Source: a virus (Duplodnaviria; Heunggongvirae; Uroviricota; Caudoviricetes). Taken from it: a stretch of DNA of 56,388 bases. Location: IMG/VR virus record IMGVR_UViG_2909282993_000001, positions 1-56,388 of that record, one strand, 5' to 3'. Positions within the stretch are counted from its first letter, which is position 1. Each line of letters starts with the position of its first letter. Of the stretch, positions 27,001 through 33,000 are shown piece by piece. The position numbers were made by a program.

Positions 27001-30000
27001 ATTACCAGTAAGTACGGGCGTCACAAGCTTGCCAGCGACGGTACCCGCTTTGGTCCCGGTCAGGCGATTGTCACACCGGCGGTGATCAAAGGGGAACTGC
27101 TGGCAACCTACCGTCAGCTTGAGCGTGCGGGGATCGTGGAAAACTACGAACTGTTTAAGCAGTACCTGGTTGTGGAGCGTGATGCCAGCGATCCGAACCG
27201 CCTGAACACGCTGTTCCCGCCTGACTATGTTAACCAGTTGCGTGTCTTTGCCGTGGTTAACCAGTTCCGTCTTCAGTATTCAGAGGAGTCTGCATAATGG
27301 CCCGTATCGGGGGAACCTGTTATTTCAAAATTGACGGTCAGCAGCTATCGCTGACCGGCGGCATTGAGGTGCCCATGAACAGGACGGTCAATGATGACAT
27401 CATCGGCCTGGACGGTTCAGTGGACCGCAAGGAAACTCACCGTGCGCCTTATGTCAAAGGGACCTTCAAGGTGCCGAAGAATTTTCCGGTGAGCAAAATC
27501 ACCTCGTCGGATGAGATGACCATCACTGCCGAGCTGGCGAACGGTCAGGTCTATGTATTGTCGTCCGCCTGGCTGCACGGCGAAGCGAACCATAATGCCG
27601 AAGAAGGCACGGTTGATCTTGAGTTCCACGGTGAAGAAGGGGATTACCAGTAATGAAAGAGCTTGAGTTAAAGAAACCGATTATCGCTCATGGTGAGACA
27701 CTCTCCGTACTGGAGTTTGATGAACCCACCGGGAAGGATGTCCGCGAGCTGGGGTATCCCTACCAGATGAATCAGGATGAGTCAGTCAGACTTCTGGCGC
27801 ATGTGGTGTCGAAATACATTGTGCGGCTGGCGAAAGTGCCGCAAAGCTCTGTCGACCAGATGTCTCCGGCAGACCTGAATGCAGCGGCGTGGCTTGTGGC
27901 TGGTTTTTTCCTCCAGGCCTGACGGCTGAATACCTCACTGATCGCTTCTTTGACTGCGCCAGCTACTGGCGCATTAATCCTTTCGAATTGCTGAATATGC
28001 CGATCAGTGAAATTCCCTTGCTGGTCAGTCAGGCAAACAGGATAGAGCAGGAGAAACGCACACATGGCGGAATTTGAGCTTAAGGCGTTGATCACCGGTG
28101 TCGACAGGCTTTCTCCCGCGCTGTCGAAAATGCAAAAGAAAATCCGGGGATTTAAACGCCAGGCGGAAGAAGCGTCACAGGGTGGGCTGGCGCTTGGTGG
28201 CGGACTGGCAGCGGGTCTGACGCTTTCCCTGAAATCTTATGCCGATCAGGAAAACGCCGCCACCGGGCTGAAAGTCGCCATGATGGATGCGAACGGCGAG
28301 GTCGGAAAGAGCTTTCAGGACATCAATAAACTGGCTATTGGCCTGGGTAACCAGCTACCCGGTACAACGGCTGATTTCCAGAACATGATGCAGATGCTGG
28401 TGCGTCAGGGGATCCCGGCAGAAAACATTCTTGGCGGTGTGGGTAAAGCGACAGCTTATCTTGCGGTACAACTGAAAAAAACACCGGAAGCGGCTGCTGA
28501 GTTTGCTGCAAAGATGCAGGATGCTACCGGAACGGCGTCAGAAGACATGATGGGGCTGTTCGACACTATCCAGAAGGCGTTTTATCTGGGTGTTGACGAT
28601 ACCAACATGTTGTCCTTCTTCACTAAAACCAGCTCTGTTCTGAAGATGGTGAACAAGGACGGTCTTCAGGCTGCACAGAGCCTTGCCCCCATAAGCGTCA
28701 TGATGGATCAGATGGGGATGAACGGGGAGTCGGCAGGTAATGCCCTGCGAAAAGTTATCCAGTCCGGATTAAGTGTTAAGAAAATCAGGGACGTCAATAA
28801 AGTCATGGCCCGCCAGAAACTCGGGGTACAGCTCGATTTTACTGACGGCAAAGGAAGTTTTGGCGGTCTTGATAACATGTTCAGGCAACTGGCAAAGTTG
28901 CGAAAACTGACCGACGTTAAGCGAACAGGCGTACTTAAGGCAATATTTGGTGATGATGCCGAAACCCTTCAGGTGGTCAATGCCCTGATCGATAAAGGAA
29001 AGGATGGCTACGATCAGATCCAGCAGAAGATGAATAAACAGGCCAGCCTGAATAAACGTGTTCAGGCTCAGCTTGGTACGCTGTCCAACCTGTGGGAGGC
29101 AATGACGGGGACCGCAACTAACGGTCTTGCAGCTATTGGCGGCGCATTTTCTGGTGACGCTAAAAATATCACGCAATGGCTGGGGGAGTTGGGGGAAAAA
29201 TTCACGAAGTTTGCGGATGAAAATCCCCGGGTTATTCGCGGCGTCGTCGGGCTTGCTGCCGGTCTTGCGATTCTGAAACTGGGATTGATGGGCGTTGGCG
29301 GTGCCATCAGTATTGTCAGCAGGATCATGTCGATGACGCCGATTGGCATGATTGCGACGGCGATAGCCCTGGCTGCGGGATTAATTATCACTAACTGGGA
29401 TGTTGTCGGACCTTATTTTAAGAAACTCTGGGAAACCATTGGTCCTTATTTTGAGGCTGGCTGGGAACTCCTTAAGAAAGTTTTTGCCTGGTCGCCGCTG
29501 GGGATGGTGATCAATAACTGGGGGCCGGTTGTTAAGTGGTTTCAGGATATGTGGGACAAGCTGAAGCCAATTATTGAGTGGTTTACCGACAGTTCCGGTG
29601 ACACGGTCGATGCCATTAACTCTGCGCAGTGGGGCGCGGGTGCTTATGATGCTTATGGGACAGGAATACCGACGCGGGGATACACACCTTATCCGGCGGT
29701 AGATCCGGCTCAGTCAAACAACGCCTCCGATGCCACAGGCCCGAATCCCTTCATGATTAACAAAGCTATCGCGCCAAAAGTTGATGGCGAGATCAAGGTT
29801 TCATTTATGAATATGCCACCAGGTATGCGGGTTACGGAAACACGTTCCAGTGGCATTGATATTAATCACGATGTTGGGTACACCAGATTTAGGTAAAGAC
29901 GAACAGGGAGGGTCGCCCCCCCTGAACTTACTGTGCGAACACGCAATTTCGGCCTGATGGGGAGCCGACAATTCTGGACATTTTTTCGCAAATAACAGTT

Positions 30001-33000
30001 ACTTGTTCTCCTTTTTTAAGAGCAGCAGCTGTTGATTTTTCAGAGTCTTGCATCTCCATTCTTGCTGGCATGAATTCATTTTCAGTTCTGAATTTAATAA
30101 TTATAGAGTCAGTAAAGTCCTTATCAATGGATTGTACGATACCTCTAACGGCGATTAATTTACCTTTTAACTGTTCATCGGTAGCGACTTCGTTTTCTTC
30201 ATACTCTTTAAACAGCTGTCGAGCAGTAGTGTTGTAGATTTCTTTTTGCGGTGCCGCAGCTTCCGTATCGGATGAGTATGAAGAATTAGAGCCTTTATCG
30301 TTATTGCCTGCAAAATATCCAATAATCACCAACCCGATGAAAATATATAAAATCCATTTTAATAATTTCTTCATGTTATCACCTTAATGCTAATAATTTA
30401 TATAGTTACAAATGGTAATGGCTACCACTACAAATTATGGCATTACCAGTAAATATTACTACTGATAATAAATATGGGACTTATATGACGTGGAAAGACA
30501 GGCTTCAGGATGCGTCATTTCGCAGCGTGCCGTTTAAGGTTGAAGAAGAAAGTGCGGGAACCGGTCGCCGTGTGGAAACACATGAATACCCGAACCGCGA
30601 CAAGCCCTATACCGAAGATCTGGGAAAAGTCACTTTCCGCCCGTCCATCACAGCTTATGTGGTGGGAGATGACTGCTTTGACCAGCGCGATCGCCTGATT
30701 GAAGCGCTGAATAAACCCGGTCCCGGCACGCTTGTCCACCCGACATATGGTGAGCTGAAAGTCTGTGTTGACGGGGAAGTTCGGGTCAGCACATCGAAAA
30801 GTGAAGGGCGTATTGTCCGCTTTGACCTGAAGTTTGTCGAAGCAGGAGAACTCTCTTACCCCACATCAGGTGCGGCGACGGCGCAGACGCTGATATCATC
30901 CTGTTCTGCACTGGATGACTGCATCAGTGACAGCTTCAGCGGTTTCAGTATCGATGGTGTGGCGGATTTCGTGCAGAACGACGTTATCGGTAATGCCAGC
31001 ATGATGCTGGGGTATGTTTCTGATGCGATGAAAGTGGTGGATTCTGCCGTATCGGATGCCGCCAGGCTGTTGCAGGGGGATATCTCGGTACTTCTGCCGC
31101 CGCCATCGTCAGGCAAAAATTTCGTTGAGCAGGTGCAGAAAATGTGGCGTACCGGGAAACGCCTTTATGGTAACGCCAGCGACCTGGTCACCATGATCAA
31201 AACGCTTTCCGGTGTCAGCCTCGGCAGCGATCTGCAACCGCGCGGCGTCTGGAAAACGGACAGTAAAACCACCGCCACGGCGACGCAGCAGCGTAACGTG
31301 GTTGCCAGCACCCTTCGTACGACCGCAATCAGCGAAGCGGCGTATGCCGTCACCCGATTGCCTGCGCCAACAATTTCCGCGGTGATGCAGAATTCCGCAG
31401 TGGGGCAGGCAACAACACCCGCGCAGAGCACTGGCTGGCCTTCCGTCACGCATCCGGCACTGAACAATGCACCGGCGGTGAAAAACACGGTTGACCTGCC
31501 GACGTGGGAAGAACTGACTGACATTCGCGACACACTGAATACGGCAATTGATAAGGAGTTGTCCCGTACAACCAGTGATGCGCTGTTTCTGGCGCTGCGC
31601 CGGGTGAAAGCAGATCTGAATGCGGATATCAACACGCGCCTTGAACAGTCTGCACGGATCATTCAGCGCACACCGGATGAGGTTTTACCCGCGCTGGTGC
31701 TGGCGGCGACCTGGTTTGATAACGCGGCGCGTGACGCGGACATTATCCGGCGTAATGCCATTACGCATCCCGGCTTTGTGCCGGTGATCCCTCTGAAGGT
31801 GCCAGTGCAATGAACGACAATGTCACGCTACGGGTAAATGGCCGGGAGTGGAATGGCTGGACATCGGTGCGCATCGGTGCCGGTATTGAACGGCTGGCGC
31901 GGGATTTCAGTGTGGAGATCACTCGCCAGTGGCCGGGAGATGAGGGTATCACCACGCTTCAGCCGCGCATTAAAAACGGTTCAAAAGTGGAAGTGCTGAT
32001 TGGTGATGAGCTGGTGATCACCGGCTGGGTGGAGGCGACGCCCGTTCGTTACGATGCCCGTTCGGTCAGCACCGGTATTGCCGGACGCAGTCTGACCGCT
32101 GACCTGATTGACTGTGCAGCCGAACCGACACAGTTTAACGGACGATCGCTGGTACAGATTGCGCAGGCGCTTGCTGCGCCTTTCGGCATTGAGGTGGTGA
32201 ACAGCGGTGCGCCGTCGGGTGTTATTCCTGATGTCCAGCCTGATCACGGTGAAACGGTGATTGAGGTAATCAACAAAATACTCGGTCAGCAGCAGGCACT
32301 GGCTTACGACGACCCGCACGGCAGGCTGGTGATTGGCGGTATTGGCTCAACGCGGGCACATACCGCGCTGGTACTCGGGGAAAACATCCTTTCCTGCGAT
32401 ACGGAGAAGAGTATCCGGGAGCGGTTTTCTGTTTACCAGGTGGCGGGGCAGCGTGCCGGAAACGACGATGATTTCGGTGAGGTCACCACCACCGCGCTGC
32501 GGGCCCGCACAGAGGACGCATTTATTGCCCGTTACCGTCCGATGTATATCAGGCAGACAGGGCAGGCTACGGGGGCAGGCTGTATTGCGCGTGCTGACTT
32601 TGAAGCCCGGCAACGGGCGGCGCGGACGGATGAAACCACCTATGTGGTGCAGGGCTGGCGACAGGGTAACGGTACGCTGTGGCAGCCCAACCAGCGGGTG
32701 ATTGTCTTTGATCCGGTCTGTGGTTTCGACAATACCGAACTGCTTGTCTCGGAAGTCACGTTTACTCAGGACCAGAACGGCACCCTGACGGAAATCCGTG
32801 TCGGCCCGCCTGATGCTTATCTGCCTGAACCCGAAGATCCCGGCGCGCGGAAAAAGAAAAAAGCCAGAGTACAGGAGGATCCGTTCTGATGAGGACGATT
32901 GAAGCCATGCAGCGACAACTTCTCGGCCTGATTGGGCGGGCAGTGGTGAAAAGCATCAGTGCCGCCACGAAATGTCAGACCGTGGATGTGTCCCTGATTG

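Follow-up and report, generated by a model that had tools for sequence, protein, structure and literature searches.

A predicted membrane-tethered OB-fold protein in the tail operon of an SfV-type Escherichia coli prophage, distantly related to Sie2009 and a candidate for superinfection exclusion

Within the window (the whole stretch of 56,388 nucleotides that was analysed), a single gene of the tail operon of an SfV-type Escherichia coli prophage is read against its neighbours. It encodes an OB-fold protein (OB protein; OB gene) which, at the level of sequence profiles, is a distant relative of Sie2009 of the Lactococcus phage Tuc2009, an experimentally proven DNA-injection-blocking Sie protein (PMC7693887). 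With somewhat better than even confidence we consider the OB gene to be a moron encoding a tethered, periplasm-facing OB protein, whose most likely role would be superinfection exclusion at the inner membrane after adsorption of the incoming phage.

The antisense gene and its insertion slot

The resident phage is an intact E. coli prophage with a Mu-like contractile tail. Its genes for an integrase, an S24 CI repressor, CII and Q make a live lysogen plausible. The head and tail genes of the window otherwise run in one direction and the OB gene alone is antisense; it lies in the tail operon and not in the lysogeny module, ~23 kb from the CI gene (6738-7412). The following features were assigned:

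28064..29896, plus strand: tape measure gene, left flank (PF10145; sliding-identity profile and C-terminal alignment)
29897..30477, minus strand: AT-rich moron insert, from the tape-measure stop codon to the resumption of SfV/SKA5 homology
29904..29924, minus strand: intrinsic-terminator-like hairpin, CAGGGGGGGCGACCCTCCCTG then TTCGTCTTT, beginning 4 nt past the stop codon of the OB gene
29928..30374, minus strand: coding sequence of the OB-fold protein (RefSeq WP_000734912, PF12869, PHROG 8545), under purifying selection
29931..30242, minus strand: predicted periplasmic OB-fold domain, residues 45-148, with the Y-x-x-NEVA-x-D motif and Cys128/Cys143
30243..30308, minus strand: disordered Ser/Asn/Asp-rich linker, residues ~23-44 (pLDDT <50 at residues 23-35)
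30309..30362, minus strand: predicted signal-anchor, residues ~5-22, LKWILYIFIGLVIIGYFA (hydropathy, charge, AF2 helix at residues 2-21)
30378..30384, minus strand: Shine-Dalgarno sequence AGGTGAT, the same in alleles A, B and C and separated from the ATG by 3 nt (AAC)
30434..30442, minus strand: putative extended -10 element, TGcCATAAT here and TGCTATAAA in alleles B and C
30485..31813, plus strand: DNA-circulation gene (Mu gp43/N-like), right flank (PF07157; start MTWKDRLQ...)

A preliminary description had reported an AT-rich ORF of 148 aa, antisense in an otherwise co-directional tail operon, as a cargo gene inserted between the tape measure and the baseplate genes. Its coordinates and strand were confirmed exactly and its GC content was 0.374, the ORF running from an ATG through 148 codons to the stop codon, and its position was borne out by the PF10145 gene on the left and by the PF07157 gene and a Mu gp44/P-like hub gene (plus strand) on the right. 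GC3 of the OB gene was 0.34, compared with a GC content of 0.51-0.58 and GC3 of 0.56-0.64 in the adjoining tail genes; alleles B and C had a GC content of 0.39-0.41. The limits of the insert were set by alignment to SfV and SfIV, in which the slot is empty, and to SKA5 and 720R4, which carry other cargo, together with the GC profile. As 30485 is the most likely start of the DNA-circulation gene, and not the 30437 given by the ORF finder, the insert was taken to span ~29897-30477; the alignment showed SfV/SKA5 homology resuming at ~30478, and the RefSeq product of this gene has 442 aa. The insert is thus ~580 bp long (GC 0.37), and the profile falls from 0.55-0.60 around it to 0.33-0.41.

The OB gene is absent from SfV, SfI, SfII and SfIV, which are fully functional phages with near-identical tails; there the junction consists of 45 bp (SfV) or 24 bp (SfIV) of intergenic sequence between flanks that are 97-98% identical. 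In SKA5 and 720R4 unrelated signal-peptide proteins occupy the same slot. In 78 of 5,426 complete genomes E. coli prophages carry a conserved relative, and among the ~1,095 E. coli genomes with this tail module 78 contain the insert, in agreement with the proposed cargo gene. Two hallmarks of a moron, presence or absence at one junction and a deviant base composition, were observed, and judged by its sequence the cassette is a moron, a promoter-gene-terminator unit inserted antisense, of which promoter and terminator are putative. The insert marks a polymorphic cargo slot, within a tail module that is very common among E. coli prophages, into which genes for exported proteins have been taken up repeatedly. 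In allele-B phages the last ~130 codons of the tape measure gene (from ~29500) form one mosaic block with the OB gene, which corresponds to ~29500-30530 of the window as defined by the sliding-identity profile and the alignment of tape-measure C-termini.

The idea of an antisense gene with signals of its own was supported by a conserved extended -10 element, the Shine-Dalgarno sequence and the predicted terminator-like hairpin. The extended -10, a putative promoter of the OB gene, is kept in three alleles despite diverged surrounding upstream sequence; because its -35 is weak, it was missed by a consensus promoter scan. The hairpin has a fold energy of -20 kcal/mol and a weak U-tract, and its GGGAGGG/CCCTCCC stem is kept in alleles B and C. 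On the plus strand no T-run follows, therefore the hairpin should not stop the tail operon.

The product matched Pfam PF12869 with an E-value of 2.9e-19 (69.5 bits; gathering cutoff 23.5), 90 homologs were collected, and between alleles dN was 0.12-0.18 while synonymous sites were saturated, hence the ORF is a real gene and not a chance ORF. Between these anciently diverged alleles dN/dS is far below 1, which places the gene under strong purifying selection, with dN higher in the linker than in the OB domain.

Protein architecture and kinship with Sie2009

The N-terminus (MKKLLK) leads into a hydrophobic stretch of ~17-19 residues (Kyte-Doolittle 2.16), and the net charge before the anchor (MKKL) is +2/+3. 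A TM anchor is common to 77 of the 83 full-length homologs, and a lipobox replaces it in 4. Since the window copy lacks both a small residue at -3 and a lipobox, the segment is taken as an uncleaved signal-anchor and not as a cleavable signal peptide. The signal/TM segment and the small soluble domain described before are thus both present, the former as an anchor. The fold and topology check that had been suggested was carried out: the AF2 model showed a confident OB-fold beta-barrel with 3F1Z as top structure match. The linker varies in length and sequence in the alignment of homologs, while the Y-x-x-NEVA-x-D motif of the OB domain is invariant. Exactly one Cys pair is present in 85 of 90 homologs, and the domain is probably disulfide-bonded. 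Because of the charge bias, the lipoprotein variants, this Cys pair and the cytoplasmic zinc ribbons that precede the TM in some homologs, the OB domain is predicted to be periplasmic and the protein to be a type II, N-in/C-out inner-membrane protein. The acidity of the domain (pI 5.6) and the extracellular location of the PF12869-related OB domain of TcdC, described below, speak for the same topology.

Both the OB protein (1.5e-49) and Tuc2009 ORF2, i.e. Sie2009 (1.7e-79), matched PHROG 8545, and Sie2009 also matched PF12869 (3.5e-11). When Sie2009 was aligned to the enterobacterial profile with hhalign, the match (probability 97.8%, E 8e-13, 27% identity) spanned TM, linker and OB domain and left the C-terminal third of the OB domain uncovered; pairwise BLASTP of the two proteins was weak (36% over 47 residues). 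At profile level the OB protein is thus a distant relative of Sie2009, and function may differ between relatives so remote, or between the envelopes of Gram-positive and Gram-negative hosts. The suggestion of a superinfection-exclusion type of gene gained support from this homology to an injection blocker. No structural tail family was matched by the OB protein, homology of this kind being what the preliminary description had set against its own proposal. No PADLOC model matched the OB protein, and its accession was mentioned in no paper in the literature searched.

In P2/186-like phages, homologs lie directly downstream of a CI-type repressor and co-oriented with it, in the lysogenic transcript, which fits the lysogeny-linked cargo that had been anticipated. 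The order repressor-BRCT protein-OB gene was found in three loci (L083, L062, L115), and in K139-like layouts the OB homolog stands where K139 has glo, which encodes a periplasmic exclusion protein and is not homologous to it. In the contexts of several other homologs no phage genes were detected with a limited probe set.

Proposed function and alternative explanations

From these data we infer topology, expression in the lysogen, an exclusion phenotype and a molecular target as follows. The OB protein would be expressed from the repressed prophage and its OB domain would be tethered to the periplasmic face of the inner membrane by a flexible linker of ~20 residues. There it could meet the tip of the incoming DNA-delivery apparatus, candidate contacts being the C-terminus of the tape measure, the tail-tip complex, or the site through which these enter the inner membrane, and would then stop genome translocation across the inner membrane. 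During lytic growth, antisense transcription of the OB gene would run head-on into strong late transcription that is antiterminated by Q; we therefore propose that its expression is largely limited to the lysogen.

A lysogenic-conversion envelope factor unrelated to exclusion is possible, although we regard it as rather improbable. In that case the ligand of the periplasmic OB domain would be an oligosaccharide or an envelope protein (peptidoglycan, LPS/O-antigen intermediates or a porin), or the domain would neutralise a toxin that acts in the periplasm (a colicin, a T6SS or a CDI effector), and the lysogen would gain resistance to stress, antimicrobial peptides or bacteriocins. However, the sole characterised member of the PHROG/Pfam family is a phage-exclusion protein, neither a BOF-family nor a known immunity protein was among the top sequence or fold matches listed, and the toxin/immunity genes, although they lie nearby in a prophage-remnant island, are not adjacent partners. 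Far less probable is a membrane-anchored abortive-infection sensor whose OB domain faces the cytoplasm, binds phage nucleic acid and triggers membrane depolarisation and cell death, after the model of AbiP and Pdp(Sau). These prophage- or plasmid-borne proteins abort infection and consist of an N-terminal TM helix joined to an OB-like domain that binds nucleic acid (PMC10127798). The nearest fold neighbours outside the family are indeed ssDNA-binding OB domains, and TcdC, discussed below, binds G-quadruplex DNA in vitro (PMC3575817). Yet the evidence for a predicted periplasmic domain given above (charge before the helix, lipoprotein variants, zinc ribbons, Cys pair) argues against such a sensor, the OB domain is acidic (pI 5.6) whereas that of Pdp(Sau) is positively charged, and Pdp(Sau), with 278 aa, was not detected as a homolog.

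A function in the virion or in lytic growth, as tail assembly factor, injection helper or lysis accessory, might be suspected from the position between two tail genes and from the joint travel of the OB allele with the tape-measure C-terminus. We hold it to be most improbable, as the gene runs against the late operon and has a terminator-like hairpin of its own, fully functional phages (SfV, SfI, SfII and SfIV) lack it, unrelated genes stand in its place in SKA5 and 720R4, homologs reside in lysogeny modules beside repressors, and structural-protein families were matched neither in Pfam nor in PHROG. The gene could also be a decaying passenger. A deletion that removes the promoter, the start codon and the TM is carried by at least five viral contigs and by some genomes (L026-L030, H81), so that the OB gene is dispensable, and among comparable tail modules it is present in only ~6-7%. 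That it has no current function in this prophage is nevertheless very unlikely: the copy in the window is intact, many genomes carry it with 100% identity, dN/dS is low between alleles, and the regulatory motifs are kept among them. Taken together, exclusion at the inner membrane is the reading we favour.

More speculatively, and in our view with a small chance of being correct, PF12869/PHROG 8545 could represent, across all bacteria, one class of injection blockers in which a membrane-tethered extracytoplasmic OB domain reads the C-terminal tip of the incoming tape measure. If true, the class would be common to temperate phages of Gram-positive and Gram-negative bacteria with TcdC as a domesticated member, and the joint transfer of tape-measure C-terminus and OB gene would reflect co-adapted specificity for the tails that are excluded or spared. 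It would also offer a structural handle on the mechanism of Sie2009, with E. coli as a model amenable to genetics. Injection block of the Sie2009 type has been known for more than 20 years, and its mechanism was described as unknown or hypothetical in papers of 2020 and 2024 (PMC7693887; PMC10883804). An OB-fold ectodomain, a relative in E. coli, and a tape measure that is both neighbour and partner in recombination make this question more approachable, and E. coli genetics, Dsb and topology tools and large coliphage panels suit the study of a tethered periplasmic entry block. As RefSeq labels the protein only 'OB-fold protein' and PADLOC gave no hit, such prophage exclusion genes would escape defence-system finders; they may influence the host range of phages in therapy.

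Comparison with known systems

3F1Z, a PF12869 structure of a Klebsiella pneumoniae 'putative nucleic acid-binding lipoprotein', shares 15-18% identity with the OB protein; it is a lipoprotein and not TM-anchored, and as a structural-genomics entry it gives no mechanism. TcdC of Clostridioides difficile has an N-terminal membrane anchor and ends in an OB domain that HHpred links to PF12869, and in phages of Lactobacillus and Leuconostoc its homologs are flanked by CI and Int (PMC3575817); the OB domain is extracellular by experiment (10.1101/872283). Its likeness to the OB protein is one of description; TcdC belongs to a toxin locus and has an extra coiled-coil segment for dimerisation, and its proposed role as negative regulator of toxin genes is disputed.

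Glo of the Vibrio cholerae phage K139 (order PL-cI-orf2(BRCT)-glo-int) is a positional analog. Both proteins are exported to the periplasm, the OB protein by prediction; Glo, whose signal peptide is cleavable, gave neither an OB nor a PF12869 match. Tested for kinship with the Glo family, the OB protein proved not to be homologous (hhalign probability 0.3%). TP-J34 Ltp, which targets the tape measure protein (PMC10883804), T4 Sp/Imm, P22 SieA and P1 Sim are membrane or envelope proteins of phages or prophages that block DNA entry after adsorption, as is proposed for the OB protein; they are unrelated families according to the literature and were set apart by description. One BFVD protein with the Ltp family name has an OB fold, which hints at fusions.

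A precedent is HK97 gp15, the founding moron, which adjoins the tape measure gene; its product is inserted in the inner membrane, where it keeps genomes from entering in a manner that depends on the tail (PMC3594210), and its specificity maps to the tail/tape-measure region of the incoming phage (PMC3594210; PMC10883804). Like the OB gene, it is an AT-rich cassette beside the tape measure gene of an E. coli temperate phage; it is autonomous, and its product is a small, prophage-expressed inner-membrane protein that blocks genome entry and leaves the receptor untouched, all of which is proposed for the OB gene and its product. It differs in lying upstream of the tape measure gene, in being much smaller and in having no OB domain. 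As gp15 is YebO-like, we presume that it has no sequence kinship with the OB protein, and it was set apart by description.

Sie2009, of which identical copies occur in phiLC3, 50101, 86501 and r1t, differs from the OB protein in several respects. The OB protein belongs to a Gram-negative host, and its domain is predicted to be periplasmic and has a Cys pair that Sie2009 lacks. The OB gene lies antisense in the tail operon of a phage with a contractile Mu-like tail and has a putative promoter and terminator of its own, whereas sie2009 is located between repressor and integrase. Sie2009, gp15 and Ltp act on phages with long non-contractile tails, unlike the tail of the window phage. In common, both are prophage-borne accessory genes, and sie2009 lies beside a repressor, as do enterobacterial and betaproteobacterial homologs of the OB gene. 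Both products are small members of PF12869 and PHROG 8545 (173 aa for Sie2009), the OB protein, with its 148 aa and predicted anchor, sharing the small, N-terminally anchored form of the Sie2009 type; in both, a basic N-terminus precedes the single hydrophobic anchor, and a linker of low complexity (Ser/Gly/Thr) connects it to an OB domain that bears a Y-x-x-N-x-x-A-x-D...KGK motif.

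Position of the OB gene in the tail operon and in its prophage

The 148-aa open reading frame on the minus strand at 29928-30374 (ATG start), which encodes a PF12869 OB-fold protein and is referred to here as the OB gene, was found exactly where the preliminary description had placed it, antisense in a head-tail region in which all other genes run in one direction. The AT-richness ascribed to it is likewise evident (GC 0.374, GC3 0.34), compared to GC 0.51-0.58 and GC3 0.56-0.64 in the flanking tail genes. In 300-bp windows GC drops to 0.33-0.41 across 29900-30650 versus 0.50-0.61 on both sides, forming a sharp AT-rich island. 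The neighbouring tail genes are as follows.

28064-29896, plus strand: tape measure gene (PF10145)
start probably 30485, plus strand: DNA-circulation gene, Mu gp43/N-like (PF07157)
plus strand, neighbour of the DNA-circulation gene: hub gene, Mu gp44/P-like

The true start of the DNA-circulation gene is most likely 30485 (MTWKDRLQ), since both the homology to SfV and SKA5 and the RefSeq annotation point there. The ATG chosen by the ORF finder (30437; 30437-30484) falls within the AT-rich insert, where it overlaps on the opposite strand with the putative -10 element of the OB gene. That the gene is an insertion, as had been proposed, is apparent from SfV and SfIV, in which the slot between the tape-measure and DNA-circulation genes is empty (45 bp and 24 bp, respectively). 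Homology to SfV and SKA5 ends just past the stop codon of the tape measure gene and begins again at ~30478; the insert therefore measures about 580 bp.

The region shares 97-98% identity with the Shigella/E. coli temperate myophages SfV, SfII, SfI and SKA5. A prophage of E. coli O169:H41 F6326-C1 (NZ_CP024263, locus COG38_RS23330) matches it at 100% identity, and there the OB gene carries the RefSeq name 'OB-fold protein'. The prophage looks complete, as CII, Q antiterminator, lysis, terminase, head and tail genes are present together with the following two genes.

1459-2622: integrase
6738-7412: S24-type CI repressor

The end of the prophage (37812-40405) harbors a pinE invertase pseudogene; the tail-fibre-assembly genes at 36845-37785 are inverted. 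It also has two further cargo genes, one without a Pfam match (38769-39707) and one with a 4-fold beta flower domain (39974-40405, PF21784). The corresponding end of the SfV genome is presumably the site of the gtr serotype-conversion genes. A second mobile element resembling a P4-like satellite (40953-49700) follows directly; according to the RefSeq annotation of the identical locus it encodes an AntA/AntB antirepressor, an Icd-like protein, a ProQ/FinO protein and the following.

40953-42167: tyrosine integrase
46982-48787: DNA primase

Predicted fold, topology and relationship to Sie2009

The N-terminal membrane segment and small soluble domain claimed for the protein were recovered in an AlphaFold2 model (36-sequence alignment, mean pLDDT 87.5), in which a helix (residues 2-21) and a disordered stretch (residues 23-35) precede a beta-barrel (pLDDT 92-98) that begins near residue 45 and includes two helices at its N-terminus. 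The fold and location of this domain, which had been left to be checked, are thus predicted to be an OB-fold barrel that is extracytoplasmic by several lines. The sequence MKKLLK places a charge of +3 ahead of the hydrophobic helix, the pI of the soluble domain is acidic (5.6), and a charged N-terminus with an anchor is found in 77 of 83 full-length homologs, a lipobox taking its place in four of the 83. In some homologs a zinc ribbon precedes the transmembrane segment. The related OB domain of the C. difficile protein TcdC was shown experimentally to be extracellular (10.1101/872283). The protein encoded by the OB gene is predicted to reside in the inner membrane with type II topology, its OB domain being held in the periplasm by a flexible tether. 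Exactly one pair of cysteines, 14 residues apart, occurs in 85 of 90 homologs, and from the invariance of this pair, and from that alone, we infer that Cys128 and Cys143 probably form a disulfide in the OB domain. A sequence search of solved structures yielded no significant match (best E 0.054, coronavirus spike fragments), so that a fold search was needed to reach 3F1Z; PADLOC and NCBIfam searches with the protein gave no meaningful match.

In PHROGs the protein matched phrog_8545, 'superinfection exclusion Sie-like' (E 1.5e-49). A tblastn probe of approximate, consensus-like sequence, used as a lead only, pointed to a gene between integrase and repressor in the Lactococcus phages Tuc2009, phiLC3, r1t and 50101, and all further comparisons were made with the real ORF2 of Tuc2009, which is sie2009.

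NC_002703 (Tuc2009) 1339-1860, minus strand: Sie2009 (ORF2), PF12869 tRNA_anti-like

Tuc2009 ORF2 matched PF12869 (E 3.5e-11) and phrog_8545 (E 1.7e-79), and hhalign aligned it to the enterobacterial family profile over 131 columns spanning the anchor, the linker and most of the OB domain (probability 97.8%, E 8e-13). By these profile matches Sie2009 is a PF12869 OB-fold protein, and the 'Sie-like' label of phrog_8545 comes from it. In pairwise BLASTP only 47 residues were matched (36% identity), and the relationship is therefore remote. Sie2009 stops heterologous phages from injecting their DNA, and the identical LC3 copy confers broad resistance when expressed alone (PMC7693887; PMC10883804). 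In none of the papers found is Sie2009 described as an OB-fold protein. Likewise, no functional study of a Gram-negative member was found under PF12869, tRNA_anti-like, 'Sie-like' or the RefSeq accession; a Klebsiella tigecycline paper mentions only an intergenic insertion near a PF12869-type gene. TcdC has been linked to PF12869, and TcdC homologs are located between CI and Int in phages of lactic acid bacteria (PMC3575817). Judged from this relationship, TcdC may be a domesticated Sie-type protein of the same lineage.

A 352-aa phage protein in BFVD (A0A8S5U313) shares the OB fold (E 9.5e-7) and is named 'Host cell surface-exposed lipoprotein', the name under which Pfam lists the Sie family of Ltp. 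Since this protein combines an Ltp-type name with an OB fold, OB-Ltp domain fusions may exist.

Predicted expression signals, alleles and genomic context

Conservation of expression signals was judged on three alleles whose synonymous sites are saturated: allele A (the window), allele B (loci L005 and L034) and allele C (locus L031). The signals in the window are listed here.

30442-30434, minus strand: putative extended -10, TGcCATAAT (TGCTATAAA in alleles B and C)
30384-30378, minus strand: Shine-Dalgarno sequence AGGTGAT
29924-29904, minus strand: GC-rich terminator-like hairpin of 9 bp, then TTCGTCTTT, starting 4 nt past the stop codon

The extended -10, the Shine-Dalgarno sequence and a GGGAGGG/CCCTCCC hairpin downstream of the gene are kept across alleles A, B and C. 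A default promoter scan upstream of the ORF gave no candidate, as the extended -10 was not flagged and the -35 is weak; the evidence for a promoter therefore comes from cross-allele conservation. With a weak -35 and no flag from the consensus scan, the promoter is a putative one. A TTGATA/TATAAT match at 30127-30100 was discarded, being inside the coding region and no more frequent than in shuffled sequences. As the plus strand of the hairpin at 29904-29924 has no T-run, it should not act as a terminator for the tail operon. Between alleles dN is 0.12-0.18 with a saturated proportion of synonymous differences (0.74-0.89), the OB domain being most constrained (dN 0.075-0.14) and the TM/linker region least. 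The OB gene is a real gene under selection.

The slot is a hotspot for exported cargo. In SKA5 it holds a 170-aa protein (L002 3179-3691, plus strand, phrog_8976) and in 720R4 a 162-aa protein (L003 3225-3713, plus strand, phrog_5586), both unrelated to the OB protein, with signal-peptide-like N-termini and in PHROGs without assigned function. This type of DNA-circulation gene is present in 1,095 of 5,426 complete E. coli genomes and the OB insert in only 78. An even-step sample of the matches contained empty slots, 'hypothetical protein' cargo, OB allele A, OB allele B (five genomes) and a deleted variant; cargos sized like those of SKA5 and 720R4 occupied roughly a third of the sampled E. 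coli modules. In the deleted variant (L026-L030, match 6001-6399, and the genome H81) a deletion of ~110 bp joins the upstream region to OB codon ~25. The -10 of the promoter, the RBS, the start codon and the membrane anchor are all lost from this variant of allele A, which is a pseudogene; the OB gene can therefore decay. Allele C occupies the same antisense slot in a diverged SfV-like lineage with tail proteins only 66-90% identical (L031-L033), and a Scandinavium genome has the same arrangement. The association of gene and slot is therefore old.

In allele-B phages a divergent tract (~29500-30530) within otherwise 96-100% identical DNA includes the last ~130 tape-measure codons, the OB gene and its promoter. 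One type of tape-measure C-terminus accompanies alleles B and C only, and the other is common to allele A, the empty slot of SfV and the SKA5 cargo. Strict co-variation of cargo and tail type is not supported by this distribution, and since these three states share one tail type, simple linkage alone may explain the mosaic block. In alleles B and C (L005 8444-8515; L031 6435-6505) the terminator hairpin GGGAGGG...CCCTCCC overlaps the convergent tape-measure 3' end and encodes its last residues (...TGMGG*); the C-terminus is shortened by 14 residues and diverges along ~45, and the insert has thus reshaped it.

The gene holds the same antisense slot in 25 of 80 IMG/VR loci with relatives, and most other loci belong to P2/186-like phages from hosts such as Enterobacterales and Burkholderiales. 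There it lies directly downstream of and co-oriented with the repressor (186 CI with PF07022 and PF16452, S24 LexA-like or other HTH), pointing away from cII (PF06892) and towards the convergent gpD-gpU-tape measure genes. By this layout, the homologs are placed in the lysogenic transcript, a classical site of prophage-expressed accessory genes. Repressor and OB gene are separated in some of these phages by a BRCT-domain gene, an order that mirrors cI-orf2(BRCT)-glo-int in Vibrio phage K139, whose glo product is a periplasmic exclusion protein. Homology to Glo was rejected (hhalign probability 0.3%), which leaves it a positional analog only.

Some Pantoea, Erwinia and Serratia copies are located in chromosomal islands or prophage remnants. 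The Pantoea/Erwinia copies (L006-L008, L038, L044, L045, L098, L100) share their island with a remnant of 186-type CI/CII. A multi-TM protein of 267 aa is encoded directly downstream of them, and genes for a putative toxin and a WapI-type immunity protein are found at a distance of 1-3 kb.

Possible function and comparison with known exclusion proteins

We are highly confident that the insert is a moron, an autonomous cassette in a phage operon, and that its product is an anchored OB protein that faces the periplasm and belongs to the Sie2009/PF12869 family. As to function, exclusion after adsorption, exerted by the prophage-expressed protein at the periplasmic face of the inner membrane, is the best-supported reading and is considered somewhat probable. 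The tethered OB domain would disturb the tape-measure/tail-tip conduit of the incoming phage or the membrane entry site, and during lytic growth late transcription would presumably silence the antisense gene.

A lysogenic-conversion factor, envelope-protective or immunity-like, is possible but rather unlikely. A cytoplasmic sensor similar to AbiP or Pdp(Sau) is contradicted by the topology evidence and a functionless passenger by purifying selection, and both are very improbable. Least credible is a role in the virion or in the lytic cycle, as the gene is antisense to the tail operon and missing from SfV.

The Pfam family and the PHROG label are already known, as is the idea that a Sie moron can adjoin the tape-measure gene. 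Of added interest are the identification of Sie2009 as an OB-fold protein with conserved relatives in common E. coli prophages, the joint recombination of these E. coli relatives with the tape-measure C-terminus, and the possible membership of TcdC in the lineage. Interference with the conduit or entry site is also the proposed mode of action of Sie2009, TP-J34 Ltp and HK97 gp15; gp15 is likewise encoded by a moron adjoining a tape-measure gene, and the tail of the incoming phage determines which phages it excludes (PMC3594210; PMC10883804).
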